The notes beneath the pieces are model-generated. The model was not told the DNA's origin and made no database searches. It worked only from the letters and a program-made list of their open reading frames with translations. A DNA stretch of 42,094 bases from positions 1-42,094 of the IMG/VR virus record IMGVR_UViG_3300033067_001544, one strand, 5' to 3'. Origin of the DNA: a virus. Its lineage: Duplodnaviria; Caudoviricetes. The position numbers and the translations under genes were made by a program. Below are positions 4,109-12,351 of this stretch, in pieces; position 1 is the first letter of the stretch; each line of letters begins with the position of its first letter.

Positions 4109-6076
4109 TCACGGCCTAAAGTAAGGATCGTTTTCCTCCATTCCCGGTGCGTCTACCCGAAGGGAAACGTACCAACCGTCGCTGAACTGTTCGGCATTGA
4201 GAACCGCTTTCTTGGCCCGGTTCCACTGGCCATTCCCCACCTTGTAGCCCGCCGCTCGCGCTTTGTATTCAAGGTCTCTCGACTTGACGTACCCACCTAC
4301 CGGAACGGTCTTCACGAGCCACTGTTTGAGGCCCAGCGTGCCGTCCGGGGCAGGTCCACCATAGGGGTTGTCGAAATCTGGAACGTATTGGATCTCGTGC
4401 CCTTCGCGGCGATAGGCGAATGTTGCGCCGCGTGGTGCGAGGAGTGATCCTTTCTCATCGGTGACGATAATGAGGCCCCGTTCTTCGGGGTGATAGCGGG
4501 CTACGAGCTGCCCACGGTGCGAGTTTCGGAACTGCACGGTTCCCATGCCCAATTCGCTCGCCTGGGTGCCGATCGCGCCCTTTCTCGTATGGCGAATGTG
4601 GATACCACAGGCACCCGTGCGCTGATAGATAGCGTTGAGGCCCTGCATGGCCGGGAGAACGTCGAAGTTCGAGTTTGTGGACTCCGCCGTACCTTGCAGG
4701 AAATAGAAGAGAGCGTCGATGATGACGAGCTTTGCACCGGTGTCGATGATGGCTTGCTCAAGTGCGGCAAGTCCTACCTTGTCGAATGGGAATGACTCAC
4801 TTATAAAGTGGATGCGGTTAAACCGCCCGCCGTTGGCGCGGTAGATCGTCATGATCTCCTCGTCCATATCCTCACCGGCGTGCAGGTAAAGGGTTGTCAC
4901 GGGCTCACAGCGGCCCTCTCCGTTGGGGAGGATGCCATTACTGAGCCCTGCCGCGATTGCCGCGGCTACCGAGGTCTTACCCGTGCCACCGTCGGCGTCG
5001 AGCAGAACCATCTTGCCCTTGGGCAGATACGGCTCCCATAGAAAGTCAAGATCGGCAGGGGTGAACGTCTCTTCGGTAAACGTGCGGATCTTTAGCTTGC
5101 GGGCAGTTGGCGCAGCGGCTGGGGTTGGTGTGTTGACGGCTTGCCGTACACGCTCCCCATACCCTTGCTCACCGAGCATCCTTGCGGCCATACCGAAGTC
5201 GCCACCGCACTCTAGGAGCGCATGAACGGCGAACTTGCTGTAAGACGTTTCTGGCTCGAACGGTGCGGCATTGGACGAAAACACGTAAAGGCATTGACCA
5301 TCACCTGTAATCGTCGCTGAGACGCCATCGCGCACCCGTTTGCCGGGGCGGGTGATACCGATGCGGTTGCCAGATTTCCCGAACACCTGCCATCCTTTAG
5401 CTTGAAGCGTTTCGAGCAGGTGCGGCCCTTTGAGGTTGTAGGCGTCGCCTGCACGTTGGCAACCCATCGCGTTGGTTCGCTCCGGGGCTCTTGTCGGCTC
5501 AGGGAAATACTCGTTCAGGAACCGGCATACCGTGAAGAGGAAACTCCGTTCCTCCGGTGTGATTGTGGGAAGGGCGGCTAAGTCGCCATCCTTGACGTTG
5601 TAGCCATTCGACGGAGCAGCTACGAAGTAACCACCCTCTCCACGGGTTTCGATCAGGGTTTGCCCTGATTCGTTGCGGGCTAAGACTGTGTTCCCGCTCG
5701 TCGTGGCGCACCGGTAGATAAGATGCACGCCACCGGACGGGGTGGATTCCTTGAATAGCTTCTCGTAAAGCTCTTCGTATCCATGATCCTTGAGCAGAGC
5801 GCGGAACGGCTTGAATGCGGGGGGCGTGGACCGCGGTTTGCCCTCGGCTTTGCCGGGTATATCGAAGTCGATACACTCTAAACCGCCCGAGACTTTGCCC
5901 CCGATCAGTGCGATCTGCTGGCCGTTGTACCAGAACTTCGGGACGAGAACAGCGTCCATCCGCTCGGATTGGAACGGCTTCCACGTCTCGAGTTCCGGTT
6001 TCTTGGTGCCGGACTTGATCGGAAGCACCGAGATACCGGCTTCCAGCAGGCGCAGAGCTTCGGGGGCGAGGCTCAA
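4109..6076 (-). CDS. Bifunctional DNA primase-polymerase fused to RecA-like (AAA_25 type) helicase
   Basis: N-terminal prim-pol motifs (ISVLPI..GTKKP, LECIDFD, TPSGGVHLIY, IETRGEGGYFVAAPS); Walker A DADGGTGKT, Walker B LVIIDAL, IRHTRK. Confidence 0.9.
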   Translation of the reverse strand: MSLAPEALRLLEAGISVLPIKSGTKKPELETWKPFQSERMDAVLVPKFWYNGQQIALIGGKVSGGLECIDFDIPGKAEGKPRSTPPAFKPFRALLKDHGYEELYEKLFKESTPSGGVHLIYRCATTSGNTVLARNESGQTLIETRGEGGYFVAAPSNGYNVKDGDLAALPTITPEERSFLFTVCRFLNEYFPEPTRAPERTNAMGCQRAGDAYNLKGPHLLETLQAKGWQVFGKSGNRIGITRPGKRVRDGVSATITGDGQCLYVFSSNAAPFEPETSYSKFAVHALLECGGDFGMAARMLGEQGYGERVRQAVNTPTPAAAPTARKLKIRTFTEETFTPADLDFLWEPYLPKGKMVLLDADGGTGKTSVAAAIAAGLSNGILPNGEGRCEPVTTLYLHAGEDMDEEIMTIYRANGGRFNRIHFISESFPFDKVGLAALEQAIIDTGAKLVIIDALFYFLQGTAESTNSNFDVLPAMQGLNAIYQRTGACGIHIRHTRKGAIGTQASELGMGTVQFRNSHRGQLVARYHPEERGLIIVTDEKGSLLAPRGATFAYRREGHEIQYVPDFDNPYGGPAPDGTLGLKQWLVKTVPVGGYVKSRDLEYKARAAGYKVGNGQWNRAKKAVLNAEQFSDGWYVSLRVDAPGMEENDPYFRP

Positions 6077-6537
6077 GAGCTAAACGTCCTCCGCCCGTAT
6101 TCCGCGATGCAGATAGCATCCGCCATGCCGTCATGCGGCACCCGGCACCGATCAGGGATAAGGTTGATCTGAGGGAACGCACGGCGCACGTAAGCTATCG
6201 CCGCGCCCTTGTCCTTCGTGGTGCCCGCGAGAACAACCTTCTTCCATGCCTGCGGGGTCACCAGCTCAACCCGCACACCGAGCGCCGCGCAAATGCCCAG
6301 CAAAGCCCCGTATCCCTTGCCGAACTTGAAGGTGGAGACTACGCCCTGCTTGGGCATTGCGCCTACCTTCTCGATACAGACAACCGGGTTCATGTAGTCA
6401 GCTATGGTTAGGGTGATTGCGTGAAGGTCAAGCTCACCACCAGCGATGGGTAGCGGAGTTACCGCGTAATCGCCATTGGTGCCGTCATAGACCGCAATGC
6501 CACCCGAGAGCCCAGGGTCGATGCCGATGATGGTCAT
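6073..6537 (-). CDS. RuvC-like Holliday junction resolvase
   Basis: IIGIDPGLSGGIA, VCIEKV, FKFGKGYG, PQAWKK, HDGMADAICIA motifs. Confidence 0.9.
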   Translation of the reverse strand: MTIIGIDPGLSGGIAVYDGTNGDYAVTPLPIAGGELDLHAITLTIADYMNPVVCIEKVGAMPKQGVVSTFKFGKGYGALLGICAALGVRVELVTPQAWKKVVLAGTTKDKGAAIAYVRRAFPQINLIPDRCRVPHDGMADAICIAEYGRRTFSS

Positions 6538-6743
6538 TGGGGCTTCACGTCCTTAATGATCTGCTCCCGTTTGGTGACGTGATCGCCGATGATTGCCTTG
6601 AGTGCCGATAGGTATGGCTTTGATAACGTCGGCATGTGCCGCATCGTGAGGTCCATGATGTGGTCGATCGTGCCGACGCCGATCTTGTCCAGCTCGATCA
6701 ACGTCTCAACCTTCAGCTTCAAATCTTCGCCGGGGGTTATCAC
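6534..6743 (-). CDS. Hypothetical protein (69 aa)
   Basis: GTG6743 with GGAGG RBS and GTGA overlap with upstream stop. Confidence 0.6.
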   Translation of the reverse strand: MITPGEDLKLKVETLIELDKIGVGTIDHIMDLTMRHMPTLSKPYLSALKAIIGDHVTKREQIIKDVKPQ

Positions 6744-7003
6744 ATCGACCTCCACGCCCGAACGGGACGCCATTTGCATTGCCACCGCCGCGATGTCACA
6801 AACTGAGGCGTCGGGCTAATCAGCCCATCCCGCTTAGCCGCAAGAATAGCGCGACCCATCGCCTTGGGATCGACAACCGCAGGCACCAACGGCCATACGT
6901 CGTCAGCGGTGAACCGGCGGCACCCGGACGCCACCTGTTGAACTGCTTTAATGGCGATGGGAAGCCAGTTTTTGACTTCCATCTTCACCACGTCATTGCT
7001 CAT
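6740..7003 (-). CDS. Hypothetical winged-helix-like protein
   Basis: FTADDVW...PKAMGRAILAAKRDGLI pattern; GGAGG RBS; ATGA overlap. Confidence 0.6.
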   Translation of the reverse strand: MSNDVVKMEVKNWLPIAIKAVQQVASGCRRFTADDVWPLVPAVVDPKAMGRAILAAKRDGLISPTPQFVTSRRWQCKWRPVRAWRSM

Positions 7004-7266
7004 GCCGCCCTCCGAGCCTTCTGTGGCGGGTTCATAATGCGGATCGTCTCTTTGACCACCTCCGCGATGTGCCGGCACCCGTTGTCAAGCGTGGGCAGCC
7101 ACTTTCGCCGCCTGTAGAAGTGATCCTCGCAGACGCAAAAGCATTCCCCGGTCTCCAGATTGATCGAGCACTCATGCACGACATCGGGCCGCGAGAATGA
7201 GCGAACCCCCCAGGACCATTCCTGGGGGCCGACTTCGCCGTAAAAGGTTACGCGTGATTCGCTCAT
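7000..7266 (-). CDS. SWIM zinc-finger protein
   Basis: CxC...CxH signature (CFCVCEDHFYR...GCRHI); GAGG RBS. Confidence 0.7.
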   Translation of the reverse strand: MSESRVTFYGEVGPQEWSWGVRSFSRPDVVHECSINLETGECFCVCEDHFYRRRKWLPTLDNGCRHIAEVVKETIRIMNPPQKARRAA

Positions 7267-7270
7267 CTGC

Positions 7271-7987
7271 TTAGTCCTCTGCAAACGGGTCGTATTCGTC
7301 GATGTCGCCAGACCGTGCGACCACGGAAGATGTAGCCGCCGGGACCGATTCCCGCGGCTCGTGTGTCTTCCCGTCGTCGTAGAACGGCAACGCGATCGCG
7401 GTATTCATCACCCACTCTTCGCGGATCGCCTCGTTCGACGTTCTGGCCGCCTTTAAGCGGGCACCTACCAAACCTTCCAGCGGCATGAACCCGAGGTCCA
7501 GCTCCATCGCTGGGATTGCTTCAACGTCGTTTCCAACCACGCGCTTGATCGTGAGAAACGGTCTCCCGTCAGCTACGAACGCGCTGATTTCCACGAGGTC
7601 GCCCTTATTGAGTTGAGCCAGCCGCCGCAAGACGCTGAACGCCGCGAGGCTCCCAGCCCGTAGCGGCAACTTCAAAACCTTAGGAGAGCCCTGGATCACC
7701 GCATCAAGGGCAAGAATCATTTCGTTGTAGGCTTCCACGCCTTTATCGGGCTTGCCCTCGTTCATGCGGGTAGCTACCGAGCGCAGTCGGCCCGAGATGT
7801 ATTCGTACTCGTGCTCCGTGCCCTTCTCGCCGGTCGCGCCCTTTACCCAGTTGGTGAGCCGCCCCATTGCGACCTTCTCCGTCTCAGCCGTGCCGTCGTT
7901 CTTTGGCACCGAGCGGGTGGCGCGGTAGTTAAACCAGATCGCGCCTGAATCCTTGGACCCGAAACCTCCTACATCTTCGTTACTCAT
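7271..7987 (-). CDS. Putative single-stranded DNA-binding protein
   Basis: 238 aa, beta-rich core, flexible linker and acidic tail DIDEYDPFAED; AAGGAG RBS; heads the replication operon. Confidence 0.6.
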   Translation of the reverse strand: MSNEDVGGFGSKDSGAIWFNYRATRSVPKNDGTAETEKVAMGRLTNWVKGATGEKGTEHEYEYISGRLRSVATRMNEGKPDKGVEAYNEMILALDAVIQGSPKVLKLPLRAGSLAAFSVLRRLAQLNKGDLVEISAFVADGRPFLTIKRVVGNDVEAIPAMELDLGFMPLEGLVGARLKAARTSNEAIREEWVMNTAIALPFYDDGKTHEPRESVPAATSSVVARSGDIDEYDPFAED

Positions 7988-8009
7988 TGTGTGATCTCTC
8001 CTTCTGCGG

Positions 8010-8249
8010 TCATGCCGCAGAGTTACGGGCTTCCCGGCCCTGTTCGGCGGGCGACTGTGCGCCAGTGGATGACTTGGGCCGCCCTTGCCGTCCATGCTTG
8101 TGGCTGATGGGCAGGCGCTTGTACTTCAAAATCGTCGGGAGTGAAACCCGGTAGCGCGCGGCTAGTTCGATGTCTGTCAGCGTCCCCGCCAACCCCTTCA
8201 GTTCAGCGTGCAGCTCGGGCGTGAATGCGATTCGTCCCTGTTGTGCCAT
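8010..8249 (-). CDS. Cro-like small HTH regulator (probably leaderless)
   Basis: LTDIELAARYRVSLPTILKYKR helix-turn-helix; first gene left of divergent promoter; ATG 7 nt after TATAAT and no SD. Confidence 0.65.
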   Translation of the reverse strand: MAQQGRIAFTPELHAELKGLAGTLTDIELAARYRVSLPTILKYKRLPISHKHGRQGRPKSSTGAQSPAEQGREARNSAA

Positions 8250-8290
8250 TACCAGCATTATACGCCAGACACTTGCAAGGTGAGTGAGAC
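8250..8290 (-). promoter_or_regulatory. Leftward promoter (-10 TATAAT at 8262-8257)
   Basis: TGGCGTATAATGC on minus strand; no canonical -35; CTTGCAAG palindrome upstream. Confidence 0.6.
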
Positions 8291-8311
8291 TTTTTTACAA
8301 AATATTCTAGA

Positions 8312-8345
8312 AAGTCTTGATTTATTTCAAGACTTGGCCTATAAT
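8312..8345 (+). promoter_or_regulatory. Rightward sigma70-type promoter with overlapping operator-like inverted repeat
   Basis: TTGATT(8317-8322)-17 bp-TATAAT(8340-8345); inverted repeat AAGTCTTGA-tttatt-TCAAGACTT (8312-8335) covers the -35. Confidence 0.8.
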
Positions 8346-8389
8346 CTCCTTATCAGCCCGCCGCAAGGCCGACTGATAGGAGATAGAGA

Positions 8390-8545
8390 ATGCTTACAAA
8401 GACGATCCGCCGCAAGGTACGACACTCTTCACCCCGCAACACTCGCGGGAGAGACCGACGGGCAGAGCTGAGGCTAGAGAAAGAAGCCGTACAGGTCATC
8501 CTTCACCCGTCCCTCTTCAACCGAACGCATGGGGTGGCGGCATGA
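8390..8545 (+). CDS. Arg-rich 51-aa protein, lambda N-like antiterminator candidate
   Basis: Not in the ORF track. MLTKTIRRKVRHSSPRNTRGRDRRAELRLEKEAVQVILHPSLFNRTHGVAA; AGGAGA RBS; first gene after promoter; ATGA overlap with next gene. Confidence 0.6.
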   Translation: MLTKTIRRKVRHSSPRNTRGRDRRAELRLEKEAVQVILHPSLFNRTHGVAA

Positions 8546-8772
8546 TGACCCTCGCCGACACCAAGCAAGGCATCATCAGCCTTGCCGTTGCGGAGCGCAT
8601 CCGCAACATCCAAAGCCCGCTACAAGCCGGATGGCTTGTGACGGTGATCGTCCCCGGCGAGGCACCCAGAGGCCCGTGGTATCGGGACATCAAGGACGCA
8701 TTCAGCTACATCCAAGAATGTAGCGCGAACGGCTGGGCCGTTGAAGTGACGTGCATTCAGGAGGTGGACTAA
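8542..8772 (+). CDS. Hypothetical protein
   Basis: 76 aa, translationally coupled at both ends. Confidence 0.7.
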   Translation: MMTLADTKQGIISLAVAERIRNIQSPLQAGWLVTVIVPGEAPRGPWYRDIKDAFSYIQECSANGWAVEVTCIQEVD

Positions 8773-8936
8773 TGAAGCCGATCCGATGCGCTTACTGCGG
8801 GCGATTCATCAAGCATGCCGATCTGGAATCCGGTGAAGCTGGCTCCCATTGGGAGTGCTACGGGTTCGGAGAATCGGACGAGTGGTTTTATCACAAGGCA
8901 TGCGAAGGCAAAGCCAATGGGGAGGTGGCGGCATGA
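8772..8936 (+). CDS. Small Zn-finger protein
   Basis: MKPIRCAYCG...HKAC; GGAGG RBS. Confidence 0.65.
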   Translation: MKPIRCAYCGRFIKHADLESGEAGSHWECYGFGESDEWFYHKACEGKANGEVAA

Positions 8937-9085
8937 AACCCCCACGCGGATATGAGATCATCCATTGTGGCGGGGAGTGGGTCGCGTTTTCGCATGAATG
9001 CGGCACCATCGGCAGATTTGACGACCCGTACCAAGCCCTCGACGCTTGCCATGCTGACCTACGGGCAAAGGCGGTGAAGGCATGA
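8933..9085 (+). CDS. Hypothetical protein (50 aa)
   Basis: GGAGG RBS; ATGA overlaps at both ends. Confidence 0.65.
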   Translation: MKPPRGYEIIHCGGEWVAFSHECGTIGRFDDPYQALDACHADLRAKAVKA

Positions 9086-9468
9086 TGGCCCGCCAACAAG
9101 CATTCATGGCCGCCGAGCGCATGAGCCTGGTATTTGGCCGGGTGATCCTGGTCTACCGTTGCTCCTGGACCCGCAAAGAGGACGGCAAGCAGGTAGACGT
9201 TGACTCGTTTGAAACCGAGTTCGTGGACGTGGACGCCTACGCGCTCATGGTGACAACCGCCACAAGCTCGATAGTCCCCACCGCTACCAAGCGCGGCATG
9301 ATCCGGGATGCGCTGATCCCGTTCTGGGAGTCGTCGGACGACCGCCGTGATTTCATCATCGGCGGCAAATACAAGCTGATCCGCGTGTTTGAGGACGGTG
9401 AATCCCTGATGCCGCCCGAAGACGTGATGGACCCGAACTATGACCCCTTTGAGGAGGTGACGGCATGA
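9082..9468 (+). CDS. Hypothetical protein with acidic YDPF C-terminal motif
   Basis: 128 aa, ends EDVMDPNYDPFEEVTA; coupled to the exonuclease. Confidence 0.7.
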   Translation: MMARQQAFMAAERMSLVFGRVILVYRCSWTRKEDGKQVDVDSFETEFVDVDAYALMVTTATSSIVPTATKRGMIRDALIPFWESSDDRRDFIIGGKYKLIRVFEDGESLMPPEDVMDPNYDPFEEVTA

Positions 9469-10106
9469 ACGCTGTTGAACAGATTGCGCAGGCATTCCCC
9501 ATGCGCATTGTTGCGGTGGACTTTGAAACCACGGGGCTCGTCCCGGCTTACGATTCCCCTACATCACTTGACGCCGTGGTGTTTGAGGATGGGGAGCCCA
9601 CGGGTGAAGTGTTCAGCCGCAAGCTGATCCCGTCCCTGAACTCCAAGTTCTCGCTTAAATCCATCGCGGTTCAGGCGGGAGAAGATTGCTTTAGTGTCGA
9701 TAAGTTGGCGGAGTCGCTGTTAAAAGTGTTTCCGCCTGACGCAATATCGGCGCGTCAAGCAATGATCGAACTGGCAGAGTGGGTGAATGAGACCGGTGTC
9801 ACGTTTACCCCTGTAGTGGCCCAGCGAGCTTACTTTGACTGGGGGTTCTACGGCCAGTGGTTAGCAAGCAACACCACGGCCTATAAGCGCGGGCTTTCGC
9901 CCGTGTGGATCTGCACAAAGACGATGGCGCGGCTTTTGGACCCCAAGAGCAAGGATATGGGGTTATCGGCACTTGCCGCCGTGTACGGGATCGAGATGGA
10001 CCGAACAGCGGGTCACGACTCCCAGATTGATGCGCTTGTGTGCGGGAAGGTGTATTACCGCCTACGCCAAGACCTACTAGAGAAAGCAGAGGCGGCACAG
10101 ATATGA
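9465..10106 (+). CDS. DEDDh 3'-5' exonuclease (DnaQ/epsilon-like)
   Basis: ExoI AVDFETTG, ExoII AQRAYFD, ExoIII HDSQID. Confidence 0.85.
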   Translation: MNAVEQIAQAFPMRIVAVDFETTGLVPAYDSPTSLDAVVFEDGEPTGEVFSRKLIPSLNSKFSLKSIAVQAGEDCFSVDKLAESLLKVFPPDAISARQAMIELAEWVNETGVTFTPVVAQRAYFDWGFYGQWLASNTTAYKRGLSPVWICTKTMARLLDPKSKDMGLSALAAVYGIEMDRTAGHDSQIDALVCGKVYYRLRQDLLEKAEAAQI

Positions 10107-10303
10107 GACCCGTAGTATCCCCAGTAAAGACCCTCACTCAGACCAACGGCCAACCCGTGACGATCCGCAGATCGGACATCGTGCGCGCCGAGCCTTGCGA
10201 AGACGGGACCATCCTGTATTGCGAGAATGGCCCATCTATCAAGGTGACGACTGTCCATGACGTGATCGCGGAGTGGTTGAACCCCAGCGGAGATAGGGCA
10301 TGA
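10103..10303 (+). CDS. Hypothetical protein (66 aa)
   Basis: MRPVVSPVKTLTQTNGQPVTI...; ATGA overlaps. Confidence 0.65.
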   Translation: MRPVVSPVKTLTQTNGQPVTIRRSDIVRAEPCEDGTILYCENGPSIKVTTVHDVIAEWLNPSGDRA

Positions 10304-10533
10304 ACGAAGCCCTCGTTACCCGGTTGTACTGGGCTTGGATGTGCGAGCCCAGGTTTGACAAGGATCTACCGGTAGATACCCTCGCGTGGGCGAACTTCTC
10401 TATGAACTACGTGACCATGCAGGATTACCGCCTGCTGGTGGATTTGAGCACACGGGAAGAAGCGAGCGTCAGGGCGGCGGTGACCATGCGCGTGGTGGAG
10501 CACCATGTCCAGTTTAGGAAGGTGGCGGCGTGA
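10300..10533 (+). CDS. Hypothetical protein
   Basis: 77 aa, coupled to neighbours. Confidence 0.65.
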
Positions 10534-11315
10534 AGACTTTTGAAATCCGGTCGCGATATGACGCCGCGAAGATTTTGTATTGCGGCGAGCACGAGTCACT
10601 AAAAGAAGCGGTGGAAGCGGCGGTAAAGAGCGGGGACGATCTCTCCGGGGCCGATCTCTACAGGGCCAATCTCTCCGAGGCCTATCTCTCCTGGGCCAAT
10701 CTCTCCGAGGCCAATCTCTCCGAGGCCAATCTCTGCAGGGCCAATCTCTCCAGGGCCAATCTCTCCAGGGCCAATCTCTCCGGGGCCGATCTCTACAGGG
10801 CCGATCTCTCCAGGGCCGATCTCTACAGGGCCGATCTCTCCAGGGCCGATCTCATCGGAGCCTATCTCTCCTGGGCCAATCTCTCCAGGGCCGATCTCTC
10901 CGGGGCCGATCTCTACAGGGCCAATCTCTACAGGGCCAATCTCTACGAGGCCAATCTCTCCGGGGCCGATCTCTCCTGGGCCAAGAATGCGGAACTCATA
11001 TTGGCGAGTACGTCAATCTGCCCAGAAGGTCAAATCATCGGCTGGAAGAAGTGCAAAGGCGGCGTTATCGTCAAGCTGTCTATTCCTGAAGATGCACGCA
11101 GGTCGAACGCAACCGGGCGCAAGTGCCGCGCTGAGTTTGCCGACGTGCTGGAGATATTCAGTGGTGGTTCTGCAGTGAGCTTGCGCGACGGCAATACGGT
11201 GTACCGCGTCGGCGAGCGTGTCATCCCGCATGAATGGTGCGAGGACCGATGGCAGGAATGCGCGGGTGGAATCCACTTCTACATCACGCGGGAAGAAGCG
11301 GAGGCGCACTCATGA
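10530..11315 (+). CDS. Pentapeptide-repeat protein with conserved phage C-terminal domain (DUF5758-like)
   Basis: A(D/N)Lxx repeats followed by [25 protein letters not shown]...[12 protein letters not shown]. Confidence 0.85.
10635..10979 (+). repeat. 23 x 15-bp tandem repeat encoding pentapeptide repeats
   Basis: Units of approximately GCC(A/G)ATCTCT(C/A)C(A/G)(G/A)G; counted from the translation DDLSG to ADLSW. Confidence 0.9.
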
Positions 11316-11788
11316 TCCACCTCACAACCTACGGCAAGGGCCTTATCCTAGGCACCCTCACTACCCTGTGCGCCATCACCGCCTACCAGAGCGCCCAGCT
11401 ACGGGCGACGGACTGGACGCCGCCGAAGCCCGCGAAGGCTAAAACCGCACCGCAGAAGTGGCACCCGTGCCGCATCACCACCTACGGCAAGCGTCCGAGC
11501 GGCAAGCCGTACCATGGCGGAAGGACAGCATCCGGCGCACGCTACGACGACTACGGGTGGACTGTGGCCGTGCCTCCGATCAAGAAGGGCTCAAGCCGCC
11601 CGATGATCCCGTACGGCACCTACATTGACCTCAGGTGGAAGGGCACAGTGTTGTTCAAGCTGAAAGTGACGGACCTGTGTCCAGGTGGGACGTTCGACGT
11701 TACGCGCAAGGCGATGGTGTCGATGCTTGGTCACTACGATAACACCACGTTGCGCGGGGCTCAGTGGGCCAAGGCGGTGCAACCATGA
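11312..11788 (+). CDS. RlpA-like double-psi beta-barrel protein with N-terminal signal/TM segment
   Basis: TTYG...[13 protein letters not shown]...TVAV...IPYGT...KVTDLCP..TFDVT matches the RlpA DPBB pattern; hydrophobic N-terminus. Confidence 0.75.
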
Positions 11789-12351
11789 ATCTGCTCGACA
11801 TGAAAGCGCACTGGGGAAACCCTGGATTCCCCGCCACTGTTCGGTACACGAACATTGTTTCACTCAATGGCTTTGCCCCTGATCCGTTCATTCTGGAAAA
11901 GGTTGTTACGTCGTGGGATGAGTTCAATGATGCGTTAACAAGTATGACCGACACGATAGTTACAGCCTTGTCGTCTGCTGAGACTAACTTTTATGGTAAC
12001 CAGCGCGAAAATCACATGACTATTCAAGAACTCATCGCAATCGCCCACGGCGACTCGTTAAAAGCCGGATGGCACGACACCCCGAGAGACAAGGGGACAT
12101 TTATCGCCCTCATGCACTCGGAGCTCTCAGAATGCCTTGAAGGTGAGCGCAAAGACCTGATGGACGACAAGCTCCCTCACCGCAAGATGGCTGAGGTTGA
12201 GCTCGCGGACACGGTTATTCGCATTGCCGACTACTGCGGACTTCACGGGTACGACCTCGAAGGGGCGATCATCGAAAAGCTCGCGTACAACCGCGTTCGT
12301 GAGGATCACAAGCAGGAGATCCGGGACCAACAAGGGGGTAAGAAGTTTTGA
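11785..12351 (+). CDS. MazG-like nucleotide pyrophosphohydrolase (N-terminal extension, or start at 12016)
   Basis: IALMHSELSECLEGERK...EVELADTVIRIADY...EKLAYNRVR motifs. Confidence 0.8.
   Translation: MNLLDMKAHWGNPGFPATVRYTNIVSLNGFAPDPFILEKVVTSWDEFNDALTSMTDTIVTALSSAETNFYGNQRENHMTIQELIAIAHGDSLKAGWHDTPRDKGTFIALMHSELSECLEGERKDLMDDKLPHRKMAEVELADTVIRIADYCGLHGYDLEGAIIEKLAYNRVREDHKQEIRDQQGGKKF

Follow-up and report, generated by a model that had tools for sequence, protein, structure and literature searches.

The early control region

The window, which is the whole 42,094-base record of a virus, encodes a tailed phage, with genes for a terminase, a portal-like protein, and an endolysin. Its terminase is 25 to 29% identical to those of the nine matching cultured or deposited phages, which were the best matches. 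Two early operons diverge from a common control region: the leftward one leads to a Holliday junction resolvase and a primase, and the rightward one carries small genes followed by an exonuclease, a helicase, and methylases. The first gene of the rightward operon (positions 8390 to 8545, plus strand) encodes a 51-aa peptide containing RNTRGRDRRAELRLEK. A preliminary description of the sequence had pointed to this arginine-rich ORF and to its absence from the ORF track. Both points hold; the ORF falls below a 60-aa cutoff, yet gene calls on 13 contigs in public sets include it. Its end overlaps the next start codon as ATGA, an arrangement shared by the downstream neighbors. The ribosome-binding site, AGGAGA (8378 to 8383, plus strand), lies at the 3' foot of a hairpin.

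Upstream of the gene is a sigma-70-type, PL-like promoter consensus (TTGATT-17-TATAAT; 8317 to 8345, plus strand) matching at 10 of 12 positions, with a predicted start near 8352. This region aligns with the sequence upstream of the corresponding gene at L080, a locus in the provirus of a temperate phage (G001; carried on a 741,662-bp contig) and the sole relative with readable DNA. A scan of positions 6500 to 12000 gave 2 promoter-like sites versus 2.3 expected. The description of the ORF as the first gene after a rightward promoter is thus borne out in gene order and consensus, while the promoter match itself is not above chance. The -35 box is preceded by an A/T tract of 14 nt (8289 to 8302, plus strand) that is identical in L080 and is a possible UP element. 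A perfect 9-bp inverted repeat across the -35 box (8312 to 8335) is a candidate operator, and the AAGTCT/AGACTT inverted repeats that lie over the promoter at 8312 to 8335 and 8287 to 8317 are candidate operators for a Cro-like protein. Contigs of one sequencing run break at 8316 to 8345.

That protein would be the product of a helix-turn-helix gene on the minus strand (8010 to 8249), which is probably leaderless with a start at 8249; gene callers place the start at 8258. The product aligns with Cro of L080, and none of 2,000 shuffles aligned as well. BLASTP gave no alignment to L080 Cro, NCBIfam gave no match, and the 82-aa form had no match in Pfam or PHROG. The -10 box of the leftward PR-like promoter is a perfect TATAAT (8257 to 8262, minus strand), and the bases from this box through the cro start codon match L080. 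The promoter is absent from the scan list because its -35-like hexamer is just 10 nt from the -10 box. Across the cro stop codon, a perfect 7-bp hairpin with a 5-nt loop (8000 to 8018, minus strand; -11.6 kcal/mol, z of -1.9) directly precedes the ribosome-binding site of a 238-aa gene.

Positions 7500 to 9500 were near-identical (96 to 98% of sampled words) in 19 runs from 9 studies, labeled as river, wastewater, seawater, unspecified, or one organism. Such a wide distribution with almost no variation could mean either a contaminant common to these runs or a single phage of very broad occurrence. One RNA run contained a 162-nt contig equal to positions 8409 to 8570 without differences; it may be DNA and gives no strand or level, and we do not count it as evidence. 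Apart from a repeat gene, it was the sole piece of positions 6000 to 12000 present in that run. The repeat gene (10530 to 11315) encodes a pentapeptide-repeat and DUF5758 protein, and many short divergent contigs from other organisms stack there.

A family of short arginine-rich peptides

Single-sequence searches with the 51-aa peptide found no relative; only a full HMMER scan did, yielding three. A profile built from these and the window peptide identified 31 family proteins (the four seeds included) among 153 candidates, with 29 at an E value of ≤1.1e-7 and 2 weak. Members are 50 to 65 aa long, except that one was called at 75 aa via an upstream start. Several members besides the window peptide are encoded on contigs of 25 to 100 kb. 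No Pfam domain was assigned to any of the 31, and "hypothetical" is the only name they carry. Pfam and PHROG library scans of all members and an NCBIfam search with five of them gave nothing significant.

Two blocks are conserved, the core R..RGRDRRAE.R and the C-terminal L.P.LF. The arginine-rich motif spans residues 16 to 31 (8435 to 8482, plus strand), and its conservation among the 31 members is R16 (31), R19 (27), G20 (28), R21 (26), D22 (29), R23 (29), R24 (31), A25 (28), E26 (24), and R28 (28). A helix is predicted at residues 23 to 34 with low confidence. The hydrophobic C-terminal motif (residues 36 to 43; 8495 to 8518, plus strand) retains L38 and P40 in all 31 members, L42 in 28, and F43 in 30. 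A second helix is predicted at residues 40 to 47, and we infer that this motif is a protein-contact segment. In P0041, P0042, and P0043, four residues of the arginine-rich motif are absent and the C-terminal motif is kept, so that RNA binding may be altered or lost in these members.

The predicted fold of the whole peptide was of low confidence (pLDDT of 65.5, pTM of 0.22), and a complex prediction with Bacillus subtilis NusA as a stand-in partner scored 0.07, a value that speaks neither for nor against an interaction. Searches against solved structures gave nothing significant; the closest hit to the single sequence was an archaeal DNA-binding protein at a nonsignificant E value of 0.19. Over 34 core codons compared between the window and L080, there were 12, 9, and 20 differences at the first, second, and third codon positions, respectively, the third being the highest. 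Eleven of these codons differ synonymously, 14 change the residue, and 9 are identical. By these comparisons, we regard the ORF as a real, conserved gene and a member of an unnamed peptide family.

At L080, a leftward cro-like gene and cI are followed by a promoter-like sequence, a hairpin, the peptide gene, and genes for an SbcC-like ATPase, RecT, and a metallo-hydrolase. The repressor is of cI type (PHROG E value of 1e-24). The promoter, TTGTAT-17-TAAGAT, was assigned visually and from its alignment with the window sequence; the scan did not list it. The order corresponds to the cro, cI, N, and recombination gene order of lambda imm21, and the peptide gene stands where lambda imm21 and P22 have N, being the first gene of the PL-type operon, downstream of cI and before the recombination genes. 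The best matches of the L080 cI (26 to 36%) and RecT (39 to 45%) are spread across several phyla. Three of eight members of the RecT cluster come from contigs sized as those of three family peptides, which hints that the L080 layout may be common to more members.

The window has the same divergent layout as L080, except that cI is missing from the interval (8249 to 8290) that separates the PL-like promoter from the cro-like gene. It looks like a cI-less derivative of an L080-type layout, and the phage is possibly a virulent, cI-deleted one. The only other protein common to the two phages, according to tblastn of the window ORFs, is the product of 11234 to 11788, which is 44% identical over 112 aa to G001:34471-34782 and has a weak double-psi-barrel match.

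Searches with neighboring genes returned no related loci, just a 99% copy, and the peptide was found in none of 17 other loci carrying the SbcC-like neighbor. Both metagenome scans with family alignments were empty. Searches with the family alignments gave four loci, of which three (L081 to L083) were false, other-frame matches and L080 was retained.

Hairpins at the start of the peptide gene and within cro

The leader of the peptide gene contains a candidate nutL-like hairpin (8351 to 8378, plus strand), consisting of an outer stem, a C.C mismatch, and a GCC-GCAA-GGC top. It folds as originally proposed, with an energy of -10.9 kcal/mol (z of -3.85), and none of 200 shuffles was as stable. 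From the likely +1 (8352 to 8376), the corresponding values are -8.8 kcal/mol and a z of -2.3, reached by 7 of 200 shuffles. The 11-mer CCGCCGCAAGG does occur twice, at 8358 and 8407, as had been noted. Exact repeats of at least 11 nt are found in 22 of 826 segments of 206 nt (about 3%); taken alone, the duplication is therefore modest. The sequence GCCGCAAGG occurs 3 times in the window versus 0.72 expected. The second copy lies within the ORF as GCC-GCAA-GGU at RK codons (8407 to 8421, plus strand) and folds weakly (-2.8 kcal/mol, z of 0.17). Its L080 counterpart, also at RK codons, is GCGC-GAAA-GCGC (z of -1.3). Both phages thus have a C(GNAA)G hairpin at this place, and members without RK cannot form one in that frame.

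The preliminary description had named covariation in related phages as a check, and this was partly realized. The leader stem covaries between the window and L080 (AUCAG/CUGAU versus GUCGG/CUGAC), whereas the near-identical runs carry no covariation signal: seven DNA or unlabeled runs showed no substitution over 7900 to 8800, and a one-base loss at 8291 occurred in two of them. P0006, P0011, and P0032 are called from an upstream start, so that the leader is encoded in frame; judged from the protein letters, it could form the same stem, with a loop that is altered on its 3' side. Rfam returned two matches, both far below threshold. A hairpin pattern search of viral contigs gave 78 loci, which were rejected as chance because none had the promoter, the peptide, or DNA similarity.

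The stem extends further, as an inverted repeat (8344 to 8384, plus strand) in which the bases after the -10 box form one outer arm and the ribosome-binding site forms the other. Extended back to 8344, it has an energy of -21.5 kcal/mol (z of -4.42), and L080 has the same extension (-19.8 kcal/mol, z of -6.36). Such a stem can form only in a transcript begun further upstream or in single-stranded DNA. In L080, it would keep the peptide from being made on transcripts that read through from cI, a gene that the window lacks. A stem reaching back to the -10 box in both phages is unaccounted for by every model considered below.

A 19-mer of the L080 leader recurs at 18 of 19 positions on the opposite strand inside cro, 184 nt into the gene and 79 nt before its stop. 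These are two matches in 40 kb, where 0.02 to 0.03 are expected per 20 kb; allowing up to three mismatches, no further copy was found in 40,000 of 40,168 bases. In 2 of 852 segments such a 13-mer was shared in L080, and one of these was the site itself. The single change turns a U-G pair into U-A, so that pairing is kept, and each copy sits on its own, different long outer stem. One register gives the core GCU-GACAC-(A/G)GC, and the cro copy (GCU-GACAC-AGC) shares 10 of 11 bases with the P22 nutL boxB core (GCU-GACAA-AGC). In the register of lowest energy, the loop is CUGACA, and its six bases are the loop size of the phi21 sites.

In the window, a candidate nutR-like site with the leader stem arms and the loop GAACAG lies in the 3' part of the cro-like gene (8035 to 8052, minus strand), 197 nt from the cro start, compared to 184 nt in L080. 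The split-stem pattern occurs only there and at 8356, versus a mean of 0.115 in genome shuffles, and 9 of 20,000 shuffles of cro contained it; for both comparisons, the pattern was chosen after it had been seen. As a plain word, the site is 9 nt, a length reached by 178 of 898 segments and not significant, and in a local-alignment scan it ties with three other places. A degenerate motif built from five sites matches four places in the window and five in G001, those sites included. Twin hairpins on both early transcripts are therefore clear in the sequence of L080 and only suggestive in that of the window.

Loops vary both between the phages and within one phage. The preliminary description had called the leader structure a GNRA, boxB-like hairpin. 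The GCAA hairpin is present in the window, but the loop is not conserved, being GACAC or CUGACA in L080. Judged from these alignments, what is conserved is a short GC stem capped by a loop of 4 to 6 bases that starts with G, not the GNRA tetraloop itself.

Resemblance to N/nut systems and possible modes of action

When a 13-column matrix of the family motif was used to rank ORFs, lambda N, P22 gp24, phi21 N, and HK022 Nun each ranked first, among 331, 245, 31, and 62 ORFs, respectively, although the columns were picked with the targets known and 13 was the best of three choices. The ranks were 2, 1, 1, and 1 with 16 columns and 7, 2, 1, and 1 with 10. Column-permuted matrices reached the observed score in 0 to 29 of 300 trials (13 columns), 1 to 28 (16 columns), and 2 to 100 (10 columns). 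The P22 score was reached by permuted matrices in 28 to 100 of 300 trials, which means that arginine content accounts for much of the signal. In the reverse direction, the window peptide came first among 373 ORFs and the L080 peptide 12th among 357. The comparison with N-family profiles proposed earlier failed: N36 matched 1 of 31 members, with an E value of 8.2. Profile-profile probabilities were likewise nonsignificant (7.9% for lambda N, 2.1% for Nun, and 0.3% for phi21 N). What the family has is a resemblance to the N motif; sequence-family membership failed in Pfam, PHROG, NCBIfam, and profile-profile comparison.

In lambda N, five arginines are reported as important and position 9 as inert (PMC12027372). 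The family retains four of the five (6, 8, 10, and 11) and has an acidic residue at position 9. Glycine replaces Arg7 in 28 of 31 members, and Arg7 is reported to be among the two most important (PMC12027372). The motif is central in the family and N terminal in the lambdoid N proteins. These are 99 to 107 aa long, so the earlier remark that the peptide is half the length of lambda N applies to the family as a whole. A second register, based on what we take to be the Nun-N alignment, places the glycine on small residue 3 and keeps arginines 6, 7, and 11.

The earlier statement that no boxA is visible also stands, since the best matches in four regions were 5 to 6 of 8 and 6 to 8 of 10; an 8-of-10 match (8423 to 8432) lies 3' of a hairpin and is absent from L080. 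No GNRNA pentaloop on a U-A closing pair was found; the GCAA tetraloop of the window is closed by C-G. The GACAC loop of L080 is closed by U-A or U-G in one register and is P22-like, in fact nearly identical to the P22 loop, rather than lambda-like. Intrinsic-type terminator-like sites occur at chance frequency (23 versus 19.3 and 12 versus 14.8), with none after cro.

As at L080, lambda N, P22 gp24, and phi21 N are encoded first after PL, downstream of cI and before recombination genes, and have paired hairpins on both early operons; their arginine-rich helix has an R..RRAE spacing that the family motif resembles. The present sites differ in placement, with the first at the very 5' end and the second inside cro rather than after its stop as in lambdoid nut. 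Both phages are unrelated to cultured lambdoids. The long polymerase-contacting arm of N, as described in PMC8632103, would have no room in a half-size peptide. Closer in setting is mEp021 Gp17, an N-like protein of a nonlambdoid phage with conserved arginines and three nut sites; that system, from a coliphage, depends on Nus factors and has a boxA and boxB loops rich in adenine (PMC11893012).

Binding of some kind between the peptide and the hairpins is fairly probable, because the position, the motif, and the twin sites each point separately to an N/nut-like pair. The 51-residue peptide, as the first product of a lambda-style early operon, would be an N-type factor of minimal size. While the RNA of the two early operons is being made, the arginine-rich helix would attach to the short G-looped hairpins in it; the hydrophobic tail, which is conserved, would next engage the transcription machinery of the host, and polymerase would read on into the recombination and replication genes. 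Here we infer the transcription start sites, the peptide-hairpin binding, the host partner, and the read-through outcome. Elongation control is favored because sites occur on both early operons and the hydrophobic tail is conserved, and such minimal N/nut-like control by the peptide is a credible reading by analogy, to which we give somewhat less than even weight. The missing boxA, the lack of evident terminators, the placement of sites within genes, and the shortness of the peptide count against it and leave weight for the three alternatives that follow. A side effect on the peptide's own translation is plausible, since two sites flank its start codon.

The same two sites would also suit translational control, as would the ribosome-binding site, which both phages have at the base of the leader stem. 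In this model the peptide binds the same hairpins and governs ribosome loading rather than transcription, by autorepression or by coupling after cro. The short peptide and the lack of a boxA and of evident terminators are consistent with this. It is nevertheless unlikely, as the L080 cro site is 79 nt from the stop and away from a ribosome-binding site, simple occlusion needs no conserved hydrophobic tail, and the in-ORF hairpin requires RK codons, which many members lack.

We consider it rather unlikely that the gene is an ordinary early gene, whose peptide binds DNA or a host protein, whose likeness to N is a matter of arginine content, and whose repeats are DNA sites (operators or loading sites) or 5' stabilizing stems. 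In both phages, the inverted repeat does start within the -10 box, which the predicted transcript does not include, the permutation controls were weak for P22, and the nonsignificant archaeal structure match is to a DNA-binding protein. Yet the twin sites are oriented with the transcripts, pairing survives a G-U to A-U change with the loop kept, and N position and motif order agree independently.

HK022 offers a further model, since its Nun occupies the N position and shares RDRR...R.EK with the family, a similarity confined to the motif. Nun is a 110-aa protein whose last 23 residues arrest polymerase and whose target is another phage (PMC5386594). The present peptide has its candidate sites in its own genome and no match to the C-terminal arrest segment. 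The put elements of HK022 are twins, one on each early transcript, with the first following PL and the second lying about 270 nt beyond PR (PMC9378689), comparable to the L080 hairpins, of which the second is 184 nt into cro. That hairpin and peptide are uncoupled in this way, the former put-like or acting in processing or stability and the latter a Nun-like exclusion factor against the RNA of other phages, is improbable, given that put RNAs are protein-independent, about 70 nt, and two-stemmed, whereas the shared cores here are 16 to 19 nt (19 nt and one stem in L080) and boxB-like, and that the window phage keeps the peptide without cI.

On balance, the module likely works like N/nut, as far as the sequences of two loci, the window and L080, can indicate. 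The N/nut reading of the preliminary description is partly supported, by the family, the N position, and the twin hairpins of L080, but not in GNRA conservation or N-family membership. N-type systems found in print are from enterobacterial phages, with proteins of about 100 residues and boxA-bound Nus factors (PMC11893012, PMC8632103). In the literature covered, mostly nonsubscription, neither this peptide family nor an N-like system of phages other than the enterobacterial ones was reported. We hold tentatively, and with more doubt than confidence, the fullest form of the proposal: a 50-residue, boxA-independent N-type antiterminator acting on both early operons in a lineage far from enterobacterial lambdoids, in which an RNA-binding helix and one eight-residue motif are enough and peptide and loop vary together.

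If true, a half-size, boxA-less version would define the minimum for RNA-tethered control of polymerase and would show how early phage genes are switched outside Escherichia coli. It would also supply new peptide-hairpin pairs for RNA tethering; the window and L080 represent two natural pairs with different loops, which would allow a cheap comparison of specificity.
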